Source: a virus
Taxonomy: Duplodnaviria; Caudoviricetes
DNA length: 64,000 nucleotides
Virus record (IMG/VR): IMGVR_UViG_3300033757_000296
Coordinates: 1 to 64,000 of that record
Reading direction: 5' to 3' (one strand)
Below, in pieces: positions 32,285 through 36,596 of this stretch; positions within the stretch are counted from its first letter, which is position 1; the number at the start of each line of letters is the position of its first letter. The position numbers and the translations under genes are program-made. The notes beneath the pieces are model-generated. The model saw nothing but the letters and a program-made list of their open reading frames with translations. It made no database searches and was not told where the DNA came from.

Positions 32285-33754
32285 ATGAAAGATTTAATCA
32301 AAAAAATTAAAGAGTGTGAGAAATGTGAAATCTGCGGTCAAACCAAAAACAAAAGCATTGGACGAGGCTCTCAGGCTCCCCGTATTCTTTTTGTTGGACT
32401 CAATCCAGGAACAGTTGAAAACGGCAACGGAATCCCATTTTCAGGGCCATCCGGACAATTACTGGACGAATGGGTTAAACATCTCGGACTCGGATCTGAG
32501 GACTATGCCGTCGTCAACCTTATCAAATGTTATACCCGGTCTGAAAGTGACCTCAGTGGGGACGAGGCCCGGAATTGCCTTCCTTATCTCCGAGAACAAA
32601 TACGAATCCTCGATCCTACCTATATCATTCCTCTCGGATCAAAACCAACCCACATTCTTCTTAATACCAACATAGGAATTATTAAATTATCTGGAAGAAA
32701 GTTTACCCCCCTAGAGGAAGGGCCCTCTTATATCCCCCTTCCTCACCCTTCATACTTTCTCCGTCGTGGGTCAAAAGGTTGGGAACAATTCTTAGACTTA
32801 GCAAAAGAAGCAATGGATGAAAGCAAAACTTTTACCACTTTCCCATCAGAAATAGAAGGCTTTCAAGAATCACAAAATATTGTATTAACAGAAACAAAAT
32901 ATGTCCCCCTTCATGTTCATACCACTCACTCTGTAACAGACAGTTTAGTCTTGCCAGAGGAACTAGCAAAAAAATGTAAAGAAAAAGGGTTCGGAGCCGT
33001 AGCAATCACCGACCACGGATCCGTGACCGGATGGTATCAATTCCAGGAAGCCTGTAAAAAATATGAAGTCCAACCTGTTTTAGGGGTGGAATTTTATGTT
33101 TCAAAAACTTTCGGAGATAAAGACAAAGAACGAGAACACCTTGTGGTCTTAGCGAAAAACGAGATTGGGATGAGAAATATTTTTAAACTTCAAGAAATAT
33201 CCGACAGAAAAGGATACTATTATAAGCCACGGATTCGACTTGAAGATCTTTATGAATATCATGACGGACTTATTGTCCTTACTGCTTGTACCCAAGGAGT
33301 AATTGCCCAACCATTTCTTAAAGGACAGCCGGGAATGGCTGTTTTGAGATTGGAAAGGTTGAAAGAGGTTTTTGGAGAAGATCTATATCTTGAGCTTCAA
33401 CCTCACTATGAATATGACGATCAGAAAAAAAGTAATAAAGAATTAATTCGTCTTTCAGAGGAATTTAATATCCCCCTTGTAATAACCACCGATCTTCACT
33501 ACATAGAAAAAGAAGACAAAAAATATCATGACCTTTTGAAGGCCGTTGTTTTTAGACAACCATTGGGAGAGGCTGGTTTCTCTATTACAACAAATTATCT
33601 GATGGACTCGGAAGATCTAATTAGGAAGGGTAAAGATACGGCCATCCCAGAGGAAATCACGATCGAAGCTATGAAAAACACCATTAAAGTTGCAGAAAAA
33701 TGTAGTGCGAAATTGACTCCTTATAAAAACGCGTTGCCGAGGATTAAAAAATGA
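32285..33754 (+). CDS. family 4 uracil-DNA glycosylase-like domain fused to the PHP domain of a family C DNA polymerase
   Basis: CEKC, GLNPG, PFSGPSGQLL, NLIKC, HPSY; then HVHT, TDHG, GVE, EHL, YYKPR, TAC, QPH, TDLHY. Confidence 0.9.
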   Translation: MKDLIKKIKECEKCEICGQTKNKSIGRGSQAPRILFVGLNPGTVENGNGIPFSGPSGQLLDEWVKHLGLGSEDYAVVNLIKCYTRSESDLSGDEARNCLPYLREQIRILDPTYIIPLGSKPTHILLNTNIGIIKLSGRKFTPLEEGPSYIPLPHPSYFLRRGSKGWEQFLDLAKEAMDESKTFTTFPSEIEGFQESQNIVLTETKYVPLHVHTTHSVTDSLVLPEELAKKCKEKGFGAVAITDHGSVTGWYQFQEACKKYEVQPVLGVEFYVSKTFGDKDKEREHLVVLAKNEIGMRNIFKLQEISDRKGYYYKPRIRLEDLYEYHDGLIVLTACTQGVIAQPFLKGQPGMAVLRLERLKEVFGEDLYLELQPHYEYDDQKKSNKELIRLSEEFNIPLVITTDLHYIEKEDKKYHDLLKAVVFRQPLGEAGFSITTNYLMDSEDLIRKGKDTAIPEEITIEAMKNTIKVAEKCSAKLTPYKNALPRIKK

Positions 33755-34080
33755 GAGAACTTGAACTGCACACTCAATGGGTTTATGGTTCTCTACAACA
33801 AGCCATAACCGAACTTGAAATGAGAATGATAATCATGGCGGAACAGATAAGAAGAGCTTTTCCCGATCCCATTCAATTTTATCAAGGAAAAGTTTTGAAG
33901 GATATTAATGGGAATTTGAAAATCCCGGCGAGACATTTAAGTACTTGGGTTATGGCTTATTGGGCACAATTTGGTTACGAGATAATTATAACAAATGATG
34001 AAACATATATAACGAAAAGAGGTGATTATGATGTTATCACAAGAAACATGGGAAGATATCAACCGGAGAATCGACGATGA
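33751..34080 (+). CDS. hypothetical protein between the polymerase halves
   Basis: ATGA overlap with the upstream gene. Confidence 0.6.
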   Translation: MRELELHTQWVYGSLQQAITELEMRMIIMAEQIRRAFPDPIQFYQGKVLKDINGNLKIPARHLSTWVMAYWAQFGYEIIITNDETYITKRGDYDVITRNMGRYQPENRR

Positions 34081-34148
34081 AATGGATTTTGAAAGGATAT
34101 TTTACGAACACCATCACGAAGCTTGGGTAAGGAAGTGATATTATATTA

Positions 34149-36596
34149 ATGAAAACTTGTCGACAAGAGGCAGAGAAAAAGGGGATTGTTTTAGATGATA
34201 AATATTTATCCAGATTAGAAAGGGAAGTGAAAGTAATAGAAGATGGCGGTTTTGCTGACTATTTTTTTATATTAAAGGGTATTGTTGATTCCTGTAAAGA
34301 GAAAAGAATTTTAACTGGTTGGTCGCGTGGGTCTGCCGGTGGCTCTTTGGTCTCATATTTGTTAGGGATTACCAAAATAGACCCGTTAAAATATGGGCTC
34401 CTTTTCGAGCGTTTTCTGGACCCATCAAGGAAAGAGCTCCCGGACATAGACTTGGACGTGCAAATGAGTCGTCGCGGGGAGGTGGTTCAAGATATAGAAG
34501 ATACATATGGAGAAGAAAGTGTCTCTCATATTGTAAACTTTGTAAGATTCAAACCACGGAATACTATTAAGGATATTTGTCGTGTTTATAATTATCCTTT
34601 TACTGAAATAAATTTTTTGACCTCGAAGATCCCTCCAAGTGTTAAAACAATTGATGAAGCAGTTAAAATAACAGAGGTCCGAACTTTCTTTAATAAGCAC
34701 CCCGAAATTGAAAAGGCATGTCGAGCTTTTGAAGGATCTATCCGTGGTCTTTCGAAGCATGCCGCTGGTATTTTAATCACTCCCGGGGCTTTATCGGATT
34801 ATGTTTCAACAGTTAAGGTAAAGGGGGAAATATGTTCATGTTTTGACAAGGCCGAAGTTGAAAATTTAGGTTTGCTTAAAGCTGACATTCTGGGCCTTCG
34901 TACTCTTGATATAATTGCTCGGACCTTAGAACTCGCGGGCTTGACAGAAGAAGACTTGCCGGATGAATTTGATGACCCCAAGGTTTTTGAATTGTTTCAG
35001 GAAGGAGACTCTCTCGGCCTTTTTCAATTTGAAACGAATTTACTCACGGGAATGACAAAAAAGGTTCGACCTACCGATTTTGAAACACTATGTATTCTTA
35101 CGGCCGCCGCTCGTCCGGGTGGGCTAAATAGCGGATCTACTGAACGGTATATCAAAAAACGTCTCGGGACCCTGGAAACTTCATACCTTCATCCGGATCT
35201 CAAACAATATCTCGAATCAACTCTAGGAGAAATATTTTTCCAAGAAGACATCATGAAGATTGGAAACGAGATTGGCGGGATCGAATTAACCCGGGCCTAT
35301 CGGATGATCAAAGAAATATCAAAATCAAAAGGAGTCGAAGCCATTAATAAATATCGTGAAGAATTTGTTTTTGGAGCTCAAAAAAACGGTTGGAAAGAAC
35401 AAACCGCTCACCAAATGTTTGATGTTATTCAAGAAGCAGGAGGATACTTATTCAATCTCTCTCACGCCGTGGGTTACTCTGCATTATCATATCTAACTGC
35501 TTGGTTAAAAACCTATTATTCGAAAGAATTTTTGGTTGCATTAATCGAATTCCCAAAACCTCAGAAAAAAGAAAAGGCACAAACTATTAACAGAGCAGTC
35601 CGAGAGCTTCGGAATTTAGGACATAAAGTTAAAACCCCTGATATAAATGAGTCCGGAGATAAGATAACAATAGGTAGCGATGGGGTTGTTTATATGGGAC
35701 TATCTGATATTGCCGGAGTTGGCACAAAAGCGGTAGAAGAAATAATTCAACAAAGACCCTACTCATCTTTTGACGATTTTGTTGGAAAGGTTCAAAAAAG
35801 ACGAGTCAATATTCGTGTCTTGAGAAATTTAGTCCAAGCTGGAGTGTTCGATTCTTATGAACGTCGAGATAAATTGTACTATTCTCTGGTCAATGAGCCA
35901 TTTGAGGAATGGGATGATGAAGAAATGCACAAAAGGGAATTAACTGTTCTTGATATGCCAACAGAAACCCCTTTGATTGAATATGCTCAAAATCCATACG
36001 AAAAAAAGGTTCACATGACATCTTTAGTTGACATTGATTTTGATGAACGAGAAGAGGAAATTTTTGTTAAAGGAGTTATCTCTGACGTTACAATCCATAA
36101 AACTTCAAAAGTTCAATTGAAAGAATATTATGGTGATGTTCAAGATATGGCCGTATTTGATTTGGACGATGGTACTTACAAAGTATCTTGTTCTGTTTCC
36201 CCTCAAGCGTTACGTTCTTATAGTAAAGAAATCAACGATGGAGAGTCGGTTTTTATTAAAGGTCATACTTTTGGAATGGGGGAAAAACTTCACGTTGACG
36301 GAATAATAAGTTTATCTAACCCCAATGATAAAAAAACTCCGTTTAAAAAATATGTGGAGAAAAACAAACGTGAAGAAGAAGCCCGTAAGATATATATGGA
36401 TGGGTATAATGTAAACGTAGTGTCCCAAGTCGTCTATCTCACCTCTAAAAAGGGAAAAGATTATGCCAGAGTAATGTTTACGAATGGAGAAACCTGGCTT
36501 TGCTTTCAACTCTCTAAAGACCTAATTAAAACCGGTGAAATATTGATTTGGTCATCTAATAAAAAACCCTTTTTAAATCTGCATCGTAAAGTATAA
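34149..36596 (+). CDS. dnaE: family C DNA polymerase catalytic subunit lacking PHP
   Basis: SRGSAGGSLV, LLFERF, PDIDLD, KHAAG, KADILGL, FQFE, YLFNLSHA, HhH and OB-like regions. Confidence 0.93.
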   Translation: MKTCRQEAEKKGIVLDDKYLSRLEREVKVIEDGGFADYFFILKGIVDSCKEKRILTGWSRGSAGGSLVSYLLGITKIDPLKYGLLFERFLDPSRKELPDIDLDVQMSRRGEVVQDIEDTYGEESVSHIVNFVRFKPRNTIKDICRVYNYPFTEINFLTSKIPPSVKTIDEAVKITEVRTFFNKHPEIEKACRAFEGSIRGLSKHAAGILITPGALSDYVSTVKVKGEICSCFDKAEVENLGLLKADILGLRTLDIIARTLELAGLTEEDLPDEFDDPKVFELFQEGDSLGLFQFETNLLTGMTKKVRPTDFETLCILTAAARPGGLNSGSTERYIKKRLGTLETSYLHPDLKQYLESTLGEIFFQEDIMKIGNEIGGIELTRAYRMIKEISKSKGVEAINKYREEFVFGAQKNGWKEQTAHQMFDVIQEAGGYLFNLSHAVGYSALSYLTAWLKTYYSKEFLVALIEFPKPQKKEKAQTINRAVRELRNLGHKVKTPDINESGDKITIGSDGVVYMGLSDIAGVGTKAVEEIIQQRPYSSFDDFVGKVQKRRVNIRVLRNLVQAGVFDSYERRDKLYYSLVNEPFEEWDDEEMHKRELTVLDMPTETPLIEYAQNPYEKKVHMTSLVDIDFDEREEEIFVKGVISDVTIHKTSKVQLKEYYGDVQDMAVFDLDDGTYKVSCSVSPQALRSYSKEINDGESVFIKGHTFGMGEKLHVDGIISLSNPNDKKTPFKKYVEKNKREEEARKIYMDGYNVNVVSQVVYLTSKKGKDYARVMFTNGETWLCFQLSKDLIKTGEILIWSSNKKPFLNLHRKV

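Follow-up and report, generated by a model that had tools for sequence, protein, structure and literature searches.

Is a DnaE-type DNA polymerase that is encoded by two genes of a virus a broken enzyme, or one assembled from two polypeptides? The question is raised by the window, as we call the whole 64,000-nt stretch of DNA analyzed here (IMG/VR record IMGVR_UViG_3300033757_000296, Caudoviricetes). An earlier note on this DNA had claimed a UDG-PHP gene (ORF A) and a DnaE core gene (ORF D) with two small genes between them; the ORF listing confirms all four (Table 1), with 394 bp from the stop of ORF A to the start of ORF D.

Table 1. Features of the polymerase locus and its neighbors; residue numbers are those of the ORF A product
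Feature	Position or residues	Strand	Description
GIY-YIG/NUMOD3 homing-endonuclease-like gene	30826-31764	+	free-standing; 0.5 kb upstream of polymerase
ORF A, UDG + PHP gene	32285-33754	+	489 aa
UDG domain	32285-32830	+	Pfam UDG, aa 26-164, E 2e-26
UDG-domain Fe-S cysteines	C11, C14, C82, C98		invariant, alignment of 23 sequences
UDG motif A	G38-L-N-P-G42		window reads GLNPG
UDG uracil-pocket residues	F52, N78, H154		invariant in 23 sequences
UDG motif B	H154-P-S		H154-P155 invariant in alignment
PHP domain and C-terminal helical segment ending ...NALPRIKK	32897-33751	+	Pfam PHP aa 209-374, E 7e-41
Nine PHP metal ligands	H210, H212, D219, H244, E269, H285, C335, D403, H405		invariant, 23 sequences
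Gap ORF B	33751-34080	+	109 aa; ATG overlaps TGA of ORF A (ATGA)
Gap ORF C	34022-34138	+	38 aa; GTG start; overlaps ORF B end; putative coding
ORF D, DnaE core gene	34149-36596	+	815 aa
Zn-finger HNH/endonuclease VII-like small ORF	36652-36975	+	directly after core
PD-(D/E)XK (Cas4-like) nuclease	36962-37687	+	Pfam PDDEXK_1, E 1e-28
Probable archaeo-eukaryotic-type primase (AEP)	37663-38661	+	homologue of PhiF1 ORF55

In a profile search, ORF A covered positions 32-330 and ORF D positions 342-1105 of phrog_405 (full-length phage DnaE, 1190 positions), so the break is clean. When the two products are aligned with a continuous homologue, P0024, the last residues of A and the first residues of D occupy adjacent positions. 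No DnaE residue is missing between them, which leaves no space for split-intein halves; the break coincides with the boundary that separates PHP from palm in single-chain DnaE. Consistently, no Hint or intein family of Pfam matched A or D, so that the halves are intein-free, as had been proposed. Introns, raised earlier as something to check, were sought with Rfam, which gave no match, neither in 33500-34400 nor in the rest of the window. ORF D begins with its own ATG, preceded by the purine-rich stretch AGGAAGTGA.

The two small genes in the gap are specific to this lineage. ORF B had no Pfam or PHROG match and no tblastn match in related loci, and a search of 1.84 billion representatives returned nothing but itself and a TPR match inflated by repeats; it is a lineage-specific ORFan. 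ORF C matched no Pfam or PHROG family, and its comparison with a ~70-aa gap protein of relatives was not significant (hhalign probability 1%). No recognizable endonuclease was found in the window's gap with Pfam or PHROG. Among relatives, the A-D junction is an 80-nt overlap in PhiF1, 11 nt in L197 and as much as 1.0-1.5 kb in others, and the long gaps hold non-homologous small genes. This variation in length and content marks the gap as an insertion hotspot with different cargo in every lineage. A gap that goes from -80 nt to 1.5 kb and holds non-homologous genes is incompatible with any need for a splicing element.

Among the relatives, Methanobacterium virus PhiF1 (GenBank MK994522.1, host Methanothermobacter) is the closest; it is a virus of archaea that has been isolated. 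Some 14 window ORFs match PhiF1, mostly in the replication and nucleotide-metabolism block, and 25914-42447 is largely collinear with it. The archaeal-virus origin claimed by the earlier note is thus upheld, and the locus is best explained as that of a virus akin to PhiF1 that infects methanogens of the Methanobacteriales. PhiF1 likewise has two genes with the same break point: ORF58 contains UDG and PHP with motif A GLNPG (39% identical to A), and ORF57 is 38% identical to D outside the ORF57 intein. A PD-(D/E)XK nuclease, an AEP-like gene, an ERCC4 nuclease, a protease and NrdD lie downstream in both viruses. Unlike those of the window, the PhiF1 ORFs overlap, with no genes between, and the PhiF1 core carries a ~350-aa intein-like insert at GPGRG/S (weak, sub-cut-off Hint matches), which the window lacks; the core of L005 has an insert at this site with a clear Intein_splicing match. 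The PhiF1 depositors had already assigned both ORFs to the DnaE superfamily and pointed out the UDG domain; in the literature we found no description of the PhiF1 polymerase.

Related virus genomes, where the split was to be checked, retain it: besides PhiF1, it is kept in ~20 metagenomic relatives, among them ENA, JGI and Logan contigs (L002, L005, L186), IMG/VR contigs (L090, L091, L095) and a methanogen-bin contig (L197). All close UDG-PHP proteins (21/21, 40-86% identity) stop 3-25 residues past the NALP+F motif, and in every relative seen the UDG-PHP gene lies immediately upstream of the core in the same orientation. The same split in about two dozen relatives points to a working design, not damage. 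In L090, a free-standing LAGLIDADG ORF splits the core a second time.

Distant viral contigs encode UDG-PHP-DnaE as a single ORF of 1120-1850 aa, in some cases with inteins (L092, L094, L096, L098, L099; P0123-P0158). Such fusions are common among other contigs, viral and metagenomic; they share the three modules and their order with the window's two proteins, to which they are 28-36% identical, and differ in being one ORF instead of two; one is binned as Proteobacteria. We found no description of them in the literature. Some distant continuous homologues carry in-frame TAA stops (L093, L004, L097). The continuous proteins show that UDG, PHP and core function together in a single enzyme; the UDG fusion therefore predates the split, is more widespread than it and is not confined to viruses of archaea. 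Two methanogen genomes contain a chromosomal PHP and core pair, split at the same site and without UDG (301 aa + 800 aa; intact, 93% identical, no gaps), which indicates that UDG is not needed for a split enzyme. Given these pairs and the continuous fusions elsewhere, the Proteobacteria bin included, the proposal that the UDG fusion is a special adaptation to a PCNA-containing host is not supported.

We examined the small subunit in an alignment of 23 UDG-PHP sequences, window included (36-87% identity). The UDG domain matched the family 4 UDG structures 1L9G, 1VK2, 1UI0 and 4ZBX by phmmer (E 4e-22 to 4e-18), with GLNPG opposite GEGPG, and the UDG half of an AF2 model resembled T. thermophilus UDG (1UI1, TMt 0.85) in Foldseek. 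Pfam, alignment and phmmer thus agree with the earlier description of a UDG-like Fe-S domain in front of PHP with GLNPG as motif A. Motif A reads GLNPG in 13/23 sequences, GLNGG in one and canonical GEAPG in nine, all but one of which are equally split. GLNPG is hence no loss of the family 4 motif across the whole clade, and F52, N78 and H154 are invariant. GLNPG is similar to G(I/M)NPG, a motif of the active MUG/SMUG glycosylases. Since the family 4 glutamate is absent in 14/23 sequences, the window and PhiF1 among them, glycosylase activity of the domain is uncertain.

The PHP half of the model superimposes on Taq Pol III alpha (2HPI; rmsd 2.0 Å, 30% identity) and also fits DnaE of E. coli and M. 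tuberculosis DnaE1 (7PU7). The model of the 489-aa subunit has pLDDT 90.4 and pTM 0.61, at which the relative orientation of UDG and PHP is undefined. The full PHP metal-ligand set reported earlier is present, all nine ligands being invariant. In the complete PhiF1 genome no DnaQ-type exonuclease family was matched, nor any beta-clamp or PCNA (PCNA_N) family. With a full ligand set and no DnaQ-type match, the natural reading of these sequences is that a small subunit of its own proofreads through PHP.

The large subunit matches DNA_pol3_alpha (E 2e-71), DNA_pol3_finger, HHH_6 and, weakly, OB in Pfam, and is made up of the DnaE palm-thumb-fingers, HhH, OB and a C-terminal domain without an intein. 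D99/D101/D103 (PDIDLD) and K244/D246 of the core are invariant. No PIP box was seen in either subunit.

Downstream of the core, the ORF at 36652-36975 matched HNH endonuclease, endonuclease VII and Lar-like protein PHROGs (E 8e-9 to 2e-4), and a homologue also follows the core in L095. The PD-(D/E)XK gene is at the same place in PhiF1, L002, L005, L090, L095, L197 and Bacillus phage Riggi. The next gene probably encodes an AEP primase: motifs FFDFDVD and SGRGFHIFV are invariant, and the top matches of its low-confidence model (pLDDT 57) are AEP-superfamily only, with weak E values (0.013-0.1). The upstream gene at 30826-31764 matched phrog_314 (homing endonuclease, E 6e-22) and NUMOD3 above the Pfam cut-off; its GIY-YIG match was weak and just below it (21.1 vs 22.6 bits). 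It points to traffic of mobile endonucleases near the polymerase. The window also encodes a dCTP deaminase, a thymidylate synthase homologue, dTMP kinase and NrdD; a dUTP-generating pathway would give a tethered UDG something to do.

Single-chain DnaE proteins (Taq Pol III alpha, M. tuberculosis DnaE1, phages Riggi and MTATph1) have the PHP-palm-fingers-HhH-OB order, catalytic aspartates and nine-ligand PHP site, as in PHP-proofreading enzymes, in common with the window, and in Bacillus phage Riggi and Moorella phage MTATph1 a PD-(D/E)XK nuclease follows, as here. They are, however, one polypeptide without UDG, from bacterial hosts with a beta clamp, whereas the window has two polypeptides, a UDG fusion and no recognized clamp-binding motif, in an archaeal virus. 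Replicative enzymes made from two genes have precedents. Cyanobacterial DnaE comes in two pieces joined by a split intein, absent from the window's halves; PolB of Methanothermobacter thermautotrophicus is split; and gp43 of some T4-related phages and NrdA of phage Aeh1 are split by homing-endonuclease insertions. Such non-intein split enzymes reassemble non-covalently, and their splitting usually goes back to mobile endonuclease genes; the window's gap differs in holding no recognizable endonuclease, while the L090 core has its LAGLIDADG ORF. UDG-PolA fusions occur in the phage N4-like cluster, SPO1, SP-10 and SP-15, where UDG was proposed to act in processivity or as a further mode of editing, and in some T7-like phages the PolA exonuclease and polymerase parts lie in two genes (Czernecki et al., 2023; PMC10201439). 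Those fusions differ from the window's proteins in being family A enzymes of unrelated fold, with a DnaQ-like exonuclease, from bacteriophages.

From the domain content, the conserved split, the conserved catalytic residues and the viral kinship, we infer, with moderate confidence, a two-subunit, non-covalent family C (DnaE-type) replicase that proofreads through PHP and handles uracil through UDG. The polymerase would be made as two polypeptides and assembled without covalent joining. With the break exactly at the PHP/palm boundary, the subunits would dock like the domains of intact single-chain DnaE. The small one would combine a [4Fe-4S] family-4-type UDG with PHP, the only candidate 3'-5' proofreader; the large one would provide the polymerase active site, fingers, HhH and OB/C-terminal domains. 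With its pocket kept, UDG may bind uracil, in the template or close to where the primer ends, and probably excise it, which would add a second kind of editing. The gap ORFs, as presumed hotspot cargo, are not part of this model. Assembly of the two proteins, their exonuclease and glycosylase activities and their role in replication are predictions of this model.

Misassembly, or a recently broken gene heading for loss, is so improbable that we set it aside: the in-frame TAA stops mentioned above do attest broken copies in metagenomes, but the identical break recurs in >20 independent sequences down to 37% identity, a cultured virus included, every catalytic residue is kept in both halves, and the methanogen pairs are intact and gapless. 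These conservation data effectively refute misassembly and decay. Later joining of the halves is very unlikely, whether through an intron (group I/II or archaeal), a split intein that splices in trans, a frameshift or ribosomal bypass. Splicing elements do circulate in these genomes, given the LAGLIDADG-containing insert in the window's SNF2 gene, and the cores of PhiF1 and L005 carry classical inteins at GPGRG/S; against this stand the missing intron and intein matches, A aligning to its last residue and D from its first with continuous homologues, a gap of ordinary ORFs and variable length, and D's own ATG behind a purine-rich stretch.

PHP domains are independent nucleases or phosphoesterases in PolX-type enzymes, PHP-only ORFs exist, and as much as 1.5 kb of DNA with unrelated genes can separate the two genes; UDG-PHP might then be a stand-alone mini base-excision-repair enzyme and the core a polymerase working without PHP. 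We consider this improbable, as the PHP half is specifically DnaE-type, stops at the very position from which continuous homologues run on into the core and is always immediately upstream of and co-oriented with the core, and continuous three-part fusions are common. Alternatively, in the same two-subunit replicase, UDG could be a structural, DNA-binding or processivity module or a host-PCNA adaptor instead of a glycosylase, which we regard as rather unlikely; this reading comes near the clamp-free processivity proposed in the earlier note. The clade is short in the segment that bears the internal clamp-binding motif in E. coli alpha. PhiF1 has no viral clamp family match, and the motif A glutamate is gone in the window, PhiF1 and 12 others. 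The N4 group of UDG-PolA, for which a processivity role was proposed, has lost its UDG catalytic residues (PMC10201439). However, the invariance of F52, N78, H154 and the Fe-S cysteines would be unexpected for a mere scaffold, nine sequences keep GEAPG, and neither subunit shows a PIP box. Moreover, the E-to-L change is always paired with A-to-N, giving G-L-N-P-G, which agrees with the active-site motif of MUG/SMUG1.

The two-subunit replicase thus retains the split, the intein-free halves and the PHP ligands of the earlier reading, allows its clamp-free processivity and uracil sensing as possible functions, and drops a clade-wide loss of the family 4 motif and a UDG adaptation specific to PCNA hosts. 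It places a bacterial-type family C polymerase in a virus of methane-producing archaea, whereas the viruses of this group have been said to rely on family B polymerases alone.

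The polymerase locus holds the four ORFs that the earlier note had described (see table): ORF A, coding for a UDG-PHP small subunit, ORF D, coding for the DnaE core, and two small ORFs, B and C, within the 394 bp that separate the stop of ORF A from the start of ORF D. All four lie on the plus strand, as do nearly all other genes in the window. When compared with phrog_405, a full-length profile of phage DnaE, ORF A matched positions 32-330 and ORF D positions 342-1105. Because the two stretches adjoin, A and D are consecutive pieces of a single DnaE with nothing missing. The PHP domain of ORF A is of the DnaE type (Pfam PHP, E 7e-41; Foldseek against 2HPI, 4IQJ, 2HNH and 7PU7, E 1e-20 to 5e-24, rmsd ~2 A). 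ORF D contains a Pol-beta-like palm (DNA_pol3_alpha, E 2e-71), fingers (DNA_pol3_finger, E 5e-36), HHH_6 (E 5e-20) and a weak OB fold, whose Pfam match (E 6e-4) falls under the cut-off. The window enzyme thus shares PHP, palm with Asp triad, fingers and HhH with DnaE-type alpha subunits; however, while these carry all domains in one chain, in the window and in more than 20 relatives the domains are divided between two ORFs.

Coordinates of features in the window and in contigs of relatives (L-numbers; L001 is the genome of Methanobacterium virus PhiF1)
Feature	Sequence	Position	Strand	Length	Remarks
ORF A, UDG-PHP	window	32285-33754	+	489 aa	Pfam UDG aa 26-164, PHP aa 209-374
ORF B	window	33751-34080	+	109 aa	ATG overlapping TGA of ORF A
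ORF C	window	34022-34138	+	38 aa	GTG start
ORF D, DnaE core	window	34149-36596	+	815 aa	Pfam DNA_pol3_alpha, DNA_pol3_finger, HHH_6, weak OB
Block collinear with PhiF1	window	25914-42447			ORF61 to ORF51 of PhiF1
Conserved ORF	window	25914-26945		343 aa	
Conserved protein with AEP motifs	window	37663-38661		332 aa	
DNA methyltransferase genes	window	22604-24838, 43467-43952, 53640-54458, 55872-56720			
tRNA-Gln(TTG), tRNA-Thr(TGT)	window	47023-47095, 50850-50923			
IS605 OrfB/TnpB-like genes	window	49017-50087, 51385-52557			
SNF2-family helicase	window	56910-59663			SNF2 match aa 146-731, LAGLIDADG_3 aa 393-458
Small ORF after SNF2 gene	window	59737-60033		98 aa	
First gap gene	L095	7562-7867			
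~70-aa gap protein	L005	8526-8729			
~70-aa gap protein	L186	1862-2086			
~70-aa gap protein	L002	8572-8775			
Core with intein (ORF57)	L001	5648-9178			
Core with intein	L005	8732-12322			
Polymerase in three pieces	L090	8607-11764			IMGVR_UViG_3300050013_000227
LAGLIDADG ORF	L090	9673-10374		233 aa	free-standing
PHP ORF then core ORF	L195	7310-10621		301 aa, 800 aa	G206:C10
PHP ORF then core ORF	L196	7294-10605		301 aa, 800 aa	G450:C33
In-frame TAA	L093	7570-7572			
In-frame TAA	L004	2550-2552			

The split was checked in related virus genomes and proved to be kept in PhiF1, an isolated archaeal virus, and in about 20 metagenomic relatives. ORF58 of PhiF1 (447 aa, UDG and PHP) terminates at residues aligning with the end of ORF A, and the start of its ORF57 aligns with the start of ORF D. 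From 5.8 billion proteins, a search retrieved 21 with both a UDG and a PHP domain (468-529 aa, 40-86% identity), each of which (21/21) ends 3-25 residues past a common NALP+F motif. In IMG/VR, matches were obtained with an alignment-based scan and none with a single-protein scan; a "longer" search with the UDG region alone gave no match. In all loci the core gene lies downstream of the UDG-PHP gene on the same strand, with a different junction each time: an 80-nt overlap in PhiF1, 11 nt in L197, a single 68-aa gene in L005 and L006, ORFs B and C in the window, products of 68 aa and 300 aa (DUF4406 and P-loop) in L002, four small genes in L186, about 1 kb in L090, and about 1.5 kb in L095, where a homologue of the 98-aa window ORF is included. 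The intergenic gap is a landing site for variable cargo.

The 98-aa window ORF, which follows the SNF2 gene, is 50% identical to the first gap gene of L095; neither has a family match, and the gene is a small one that moves between sites. ORFs B and C gave no endonuclease or other family match (Pfam, phage protein profiles and, for B, a large representative-protein search) and have no detectable relatives in the gaps of related loci. Among 1.84 billion representatives, ORF B matched only itself and a 1048-aa NB-ARC/TPR protein with an E-value inflated by ten repeats, and is treated here as a putative ORFan. A conserved protein of ~70 aa is encoded directly after UDG-PHP in L005, L186 and L002, with start and stop codons adjacent or overlapping; the three copies have IN.LLD...FN.GW motifs in common at 33-47% identity. 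The protein is a candidate accessory subunit. PhiF1 and L197 lack it, and no counterpart could be demonstrated in the window: MAFFT hinted at IN..LD and F..W motifs in ORFs B and C, but hhalign gave probabilities of only 1% and 0.4%, and homology was rejected.

Genes in pieces usually arise through the traffic of mobile endonucleases, and mobile genes of this kind have clearly entered the polymerase neighbourhood. The polymerase genes of the window have a GIY-YIG/NUMOD3-like gene on one side and an HNH-like gene on the other. In L090, and likewise in L091, the core is interrupted once more, near residue 340 of the window protein, by a LAGLIDADG ORF that overlaps both adjoining core pieces. The cores of PhiF1 and L005 carry an intein of ~350 aa at GPGRG|S, with a clear Intein_splicing match and a sub-threshold LAGLIDADG match in L005 and weak Hint matches only in PhiF1; the window core reads GWSRGS at this site and the intein is absent. 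The LAGLIDADG_3 segment inside the SNF2 match of the window helicase is probably also an intein.

A homing endonuclease that split the gene and still sits between its halves was nevertheless rejected for the window, as no endonuclease is recognisable in the gap. A DnaE rejoined in trans by a split intein was rejected too: ORFs A and D align to continuous homologues right to the break and, in agreement with the absence of intein motifs claimed earlier, neither has a Hint or intein match in Pfam. Nor did we retain a gene interrupted by a group I or group II intron, since no such Rfam match reached the gathering score in the whole window and a search of 33500-34400 at E up to 10 yielded chance-level matches only.

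Judged by their conserved residues, both polymerase halves look active. The nine PHP metal ligands (H210, H212, D219, H244, E269, H285, C335, D403 and H405) are invariant in 23 aligned small subunits, and ORF D has PDIDLD and KADILG motifs, with D99, D101, D103 and D246 invariant in seven aligned homologues. In an AlphaFold2 model of ORF A (mean pLDDT 90.4), the PHP half fits Taq Pol III alpha with an rmsd of 2.0 A and the UDG half reaches a target TM-score of 0.85 against T. thermophilus UDG; how the two domains are oriented to each other is not fixed by the model (pTM 0.61). No DnaQ/RNase_T, beta-clamp or PCNA_N family matched in the complete PhiF1 genome, while positive controls behaved as expected; hence PHP is the sole candidate proofreader and a viral clamp is not apparent. 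The beta-clamp family (PF00712) also had no match in three related contigs, nor among the individually scanned ORFs of the window. By eye, no clamp-binding motif resembling QL(S/D)LF was seen in ORF D at the position where the E. coli protein carries it. The conserved 343-aa ORF does not look like a viral clamp and was rejected as one: it has no family match, and its ESM Atlas lead is weak and concerns a C-terminal OB fold or YorF.

The UDG fold is nearest to family 4 (phmmer E 4e-22 to 1L9G/1VK2 and 1e-19 to 1UI0; Foldseek TMt 0.81-0.85). Four cysteines for a predicted [4Fe-4S] cluster (C11, C14, C82 and C98) are invariant in 23 sequences. In the same set F52, N78 and motif B (H154-P155-S156) are invariant or nearly so, with F52, N78 and H154-P155 fully conserved, and they align with the uracil-pocket residues and motif B of 1L9G and 1UI0. 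Motif A of the window protein, GLNPG, aligns to GEGPG and does not match the family 4 consensus GE(A/G)PG. It is GLNPG in 13 of the 23 small subunits (window, PhiF1 and 11 more), GLNGG in one (protein P0001) and GEAPG in nine, L095 and L197 among them. Since the GEAPG members, all but P0024, are equally split, the change in motif A is independent of the gene split. MUG/TDG and SMUG1 glycosylases have G(I/M)NPG as their active-site motif, and its asparagine positions the water; by analogy, the paired change from E-A to L-N could keep catalysis.

Distant viral contigs (L092, L094, L096, L098, L099, L104, L111 and L116) encode UDG, PHP and core in a single ORF of about 1330 aa with 28-36% identity, and dozens of continuous UDG-PHP-DnaE clusters occur in metagenomes. 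Hence the fusion with UDG predates the split and extends more widely. With one or more of the continuous proteins binned as Proteobacteria, adaptation to an archaeal host cannot alone account for the fusion. This distribution does not favour the tie that the earlier note had proposed between the UDG and clamp-free processivity in a host with PCNA. The DnaE proteins of Bacillus phage Riggi and Moorella phage MTATph1 differ from that of the window in being continuous and lacking the UDG, but these phages have a downstream PD-(D/E)XK nuclease in common with it, which points to module exchange between bacterial and archaeal viruses. A single in-frame TAA interrupts otherwise continuous UDG-PHP-DnaE genes at two different positions, one in L093 and one in L004 (L097 is alike); gene breakage, sequencing error and read-through are candidate causes.

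Among 50,697 phage records, the best match of both polymerase proteins is PhiF1 (MK994522.1), isolated on Methanothermobacter. Some 14 ORFs of the window have counterparts in PhiF1, and a block of replication and nucleotide-metabolism genes, with a PD-(D/E)XK nuclease, the conserved 332-aa protein, an ERCC4 nuclease, a proteasome-like protease and NrdD, is largely collinear between the two. Related UDG-PHP genes are also found on contigs binned with the McrA-carrying genomes G202 and G264, in whose family only 6 of 301 sampled genomes have a PHP match, which fits sporadic viral DNA in an archaeal family. A contig titled "Methanobacteriaceae archaeon" (L049, CAVCIU010000036.1; genome G001) was rejected as host evidence. 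Because McrA is absent and full-length DnaE is present in 196 of 201 genomes of the family, its public label is apparently wrong and the genome bacterial. The assignment of the window to an archaeal virus appears sound, mainly through kinship with the cultured PhiF1.

The 332-aa protein has no Pfam match but contains the AEP motifs FFDFDVD and SGRGFHIFV (DxD, SGxGxH) and a Cys-rich C-terminus. The top fold matches of its model (pLDDT 57) are all AEP enzymes, though weak, and given the low confidence of the model were used only jointly with the sequence motifs; a PDB-sequence profile match at a polyubiquitin junction was dismissed as chance. The window further contains two IS605 OrfB/TnpB-like genes adjoining tRNA genes, at least five DNA methyltransferase genes (N6/N4 and C5 types) in its 64 kb, and genes for dCTP deaminase, a short thymidylate-synthase homologue, dTMP kinase and NrdD. 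The virus invests heavily in DNA modification and nucleotide metabolism.

In the methanogen genomes G206 and G450, a PHP ORF followed by a core ORF has the same PHP/palm break as the window, without the UDG. The two cores are 93% identical without gaps, and the neighbours, all ordinary genes of a cell, stand in the same order: FmdE, an FecCD ABC transporter, a Na:solute symporter, an AMP-binding ligase and an IorA-like oxidoreductase, the last having 56-91% identical orthologues in 57 of the family's 61 genomes. McrA is present in G206; none was found in G450. From its gene context, the pair seems to be a family C polymerase that a few methanogens carry on the chromosome.

For assembly and all activities alike, we infer that the window locus most likely encodes a non-covalent two-subunit family C replicase, whose small subunit carries the PHP proofreader together with a UDG that handles uracil. 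We hold a broader reading only tentatively and think it rather improbable as a whole: that viruses of Methanobacteriales would replicate with a family C heterodimer adapted to a host that lacks the beta clamp, that the Fe-S UDG on the detached PHP would serve second, uracil-directed editing or as a handle for host PCNA, and that the same split PHP and core would have been taken into some methanogen chromosomes as a cellular family C polymerase in Archaea.

A 2016 survey describes viral C-family polymerases as confined to bacteriophages (PMC4889955), and according to a 2024 preprint archaeal viruses encode family B polymerases only (bioRxiv 10.1101/2024.04.26.591309). Our literature search found no paper on DnaE in an archaeal virus; the GenBank record of PhiF1 (2019) already annotates both ORFs and the UDG domain. 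The nearest published parallel is in phage family A enzymes, for which UDG-PolA fusions as well as separate exonuclease and polymerase genes have been described and the role of the UDG is likewise questioned (PMC10201439). The window enzyme is a variant on known themes: DnaE, genes in pieces and UDG-polymerase fusions.

The window virus, PhiF1 and about 20 relatives form a clade of methanogen viruses built around a DnaE-type enzyme, which contradicts the published generalisation on archaeal virus polymerases. Two traits of the enzyme are unusual: its proofreader and polymerase parts are separated by a conserved split that involves no intein, and the proofreader subunit carries a UDG. The clade offers a natural test of how a family C polymerase works without its bacterial partners beta clamp, tau and epsilon, of the separability of the PHP and polymerase parts, and of the role of UDG domains on replicases. 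Because PhiF1 and its host can be cultured, these questions are directly testable. The chromosomal split pairs also prompt one to ask whether a family C polymerase is in use in some archaea.
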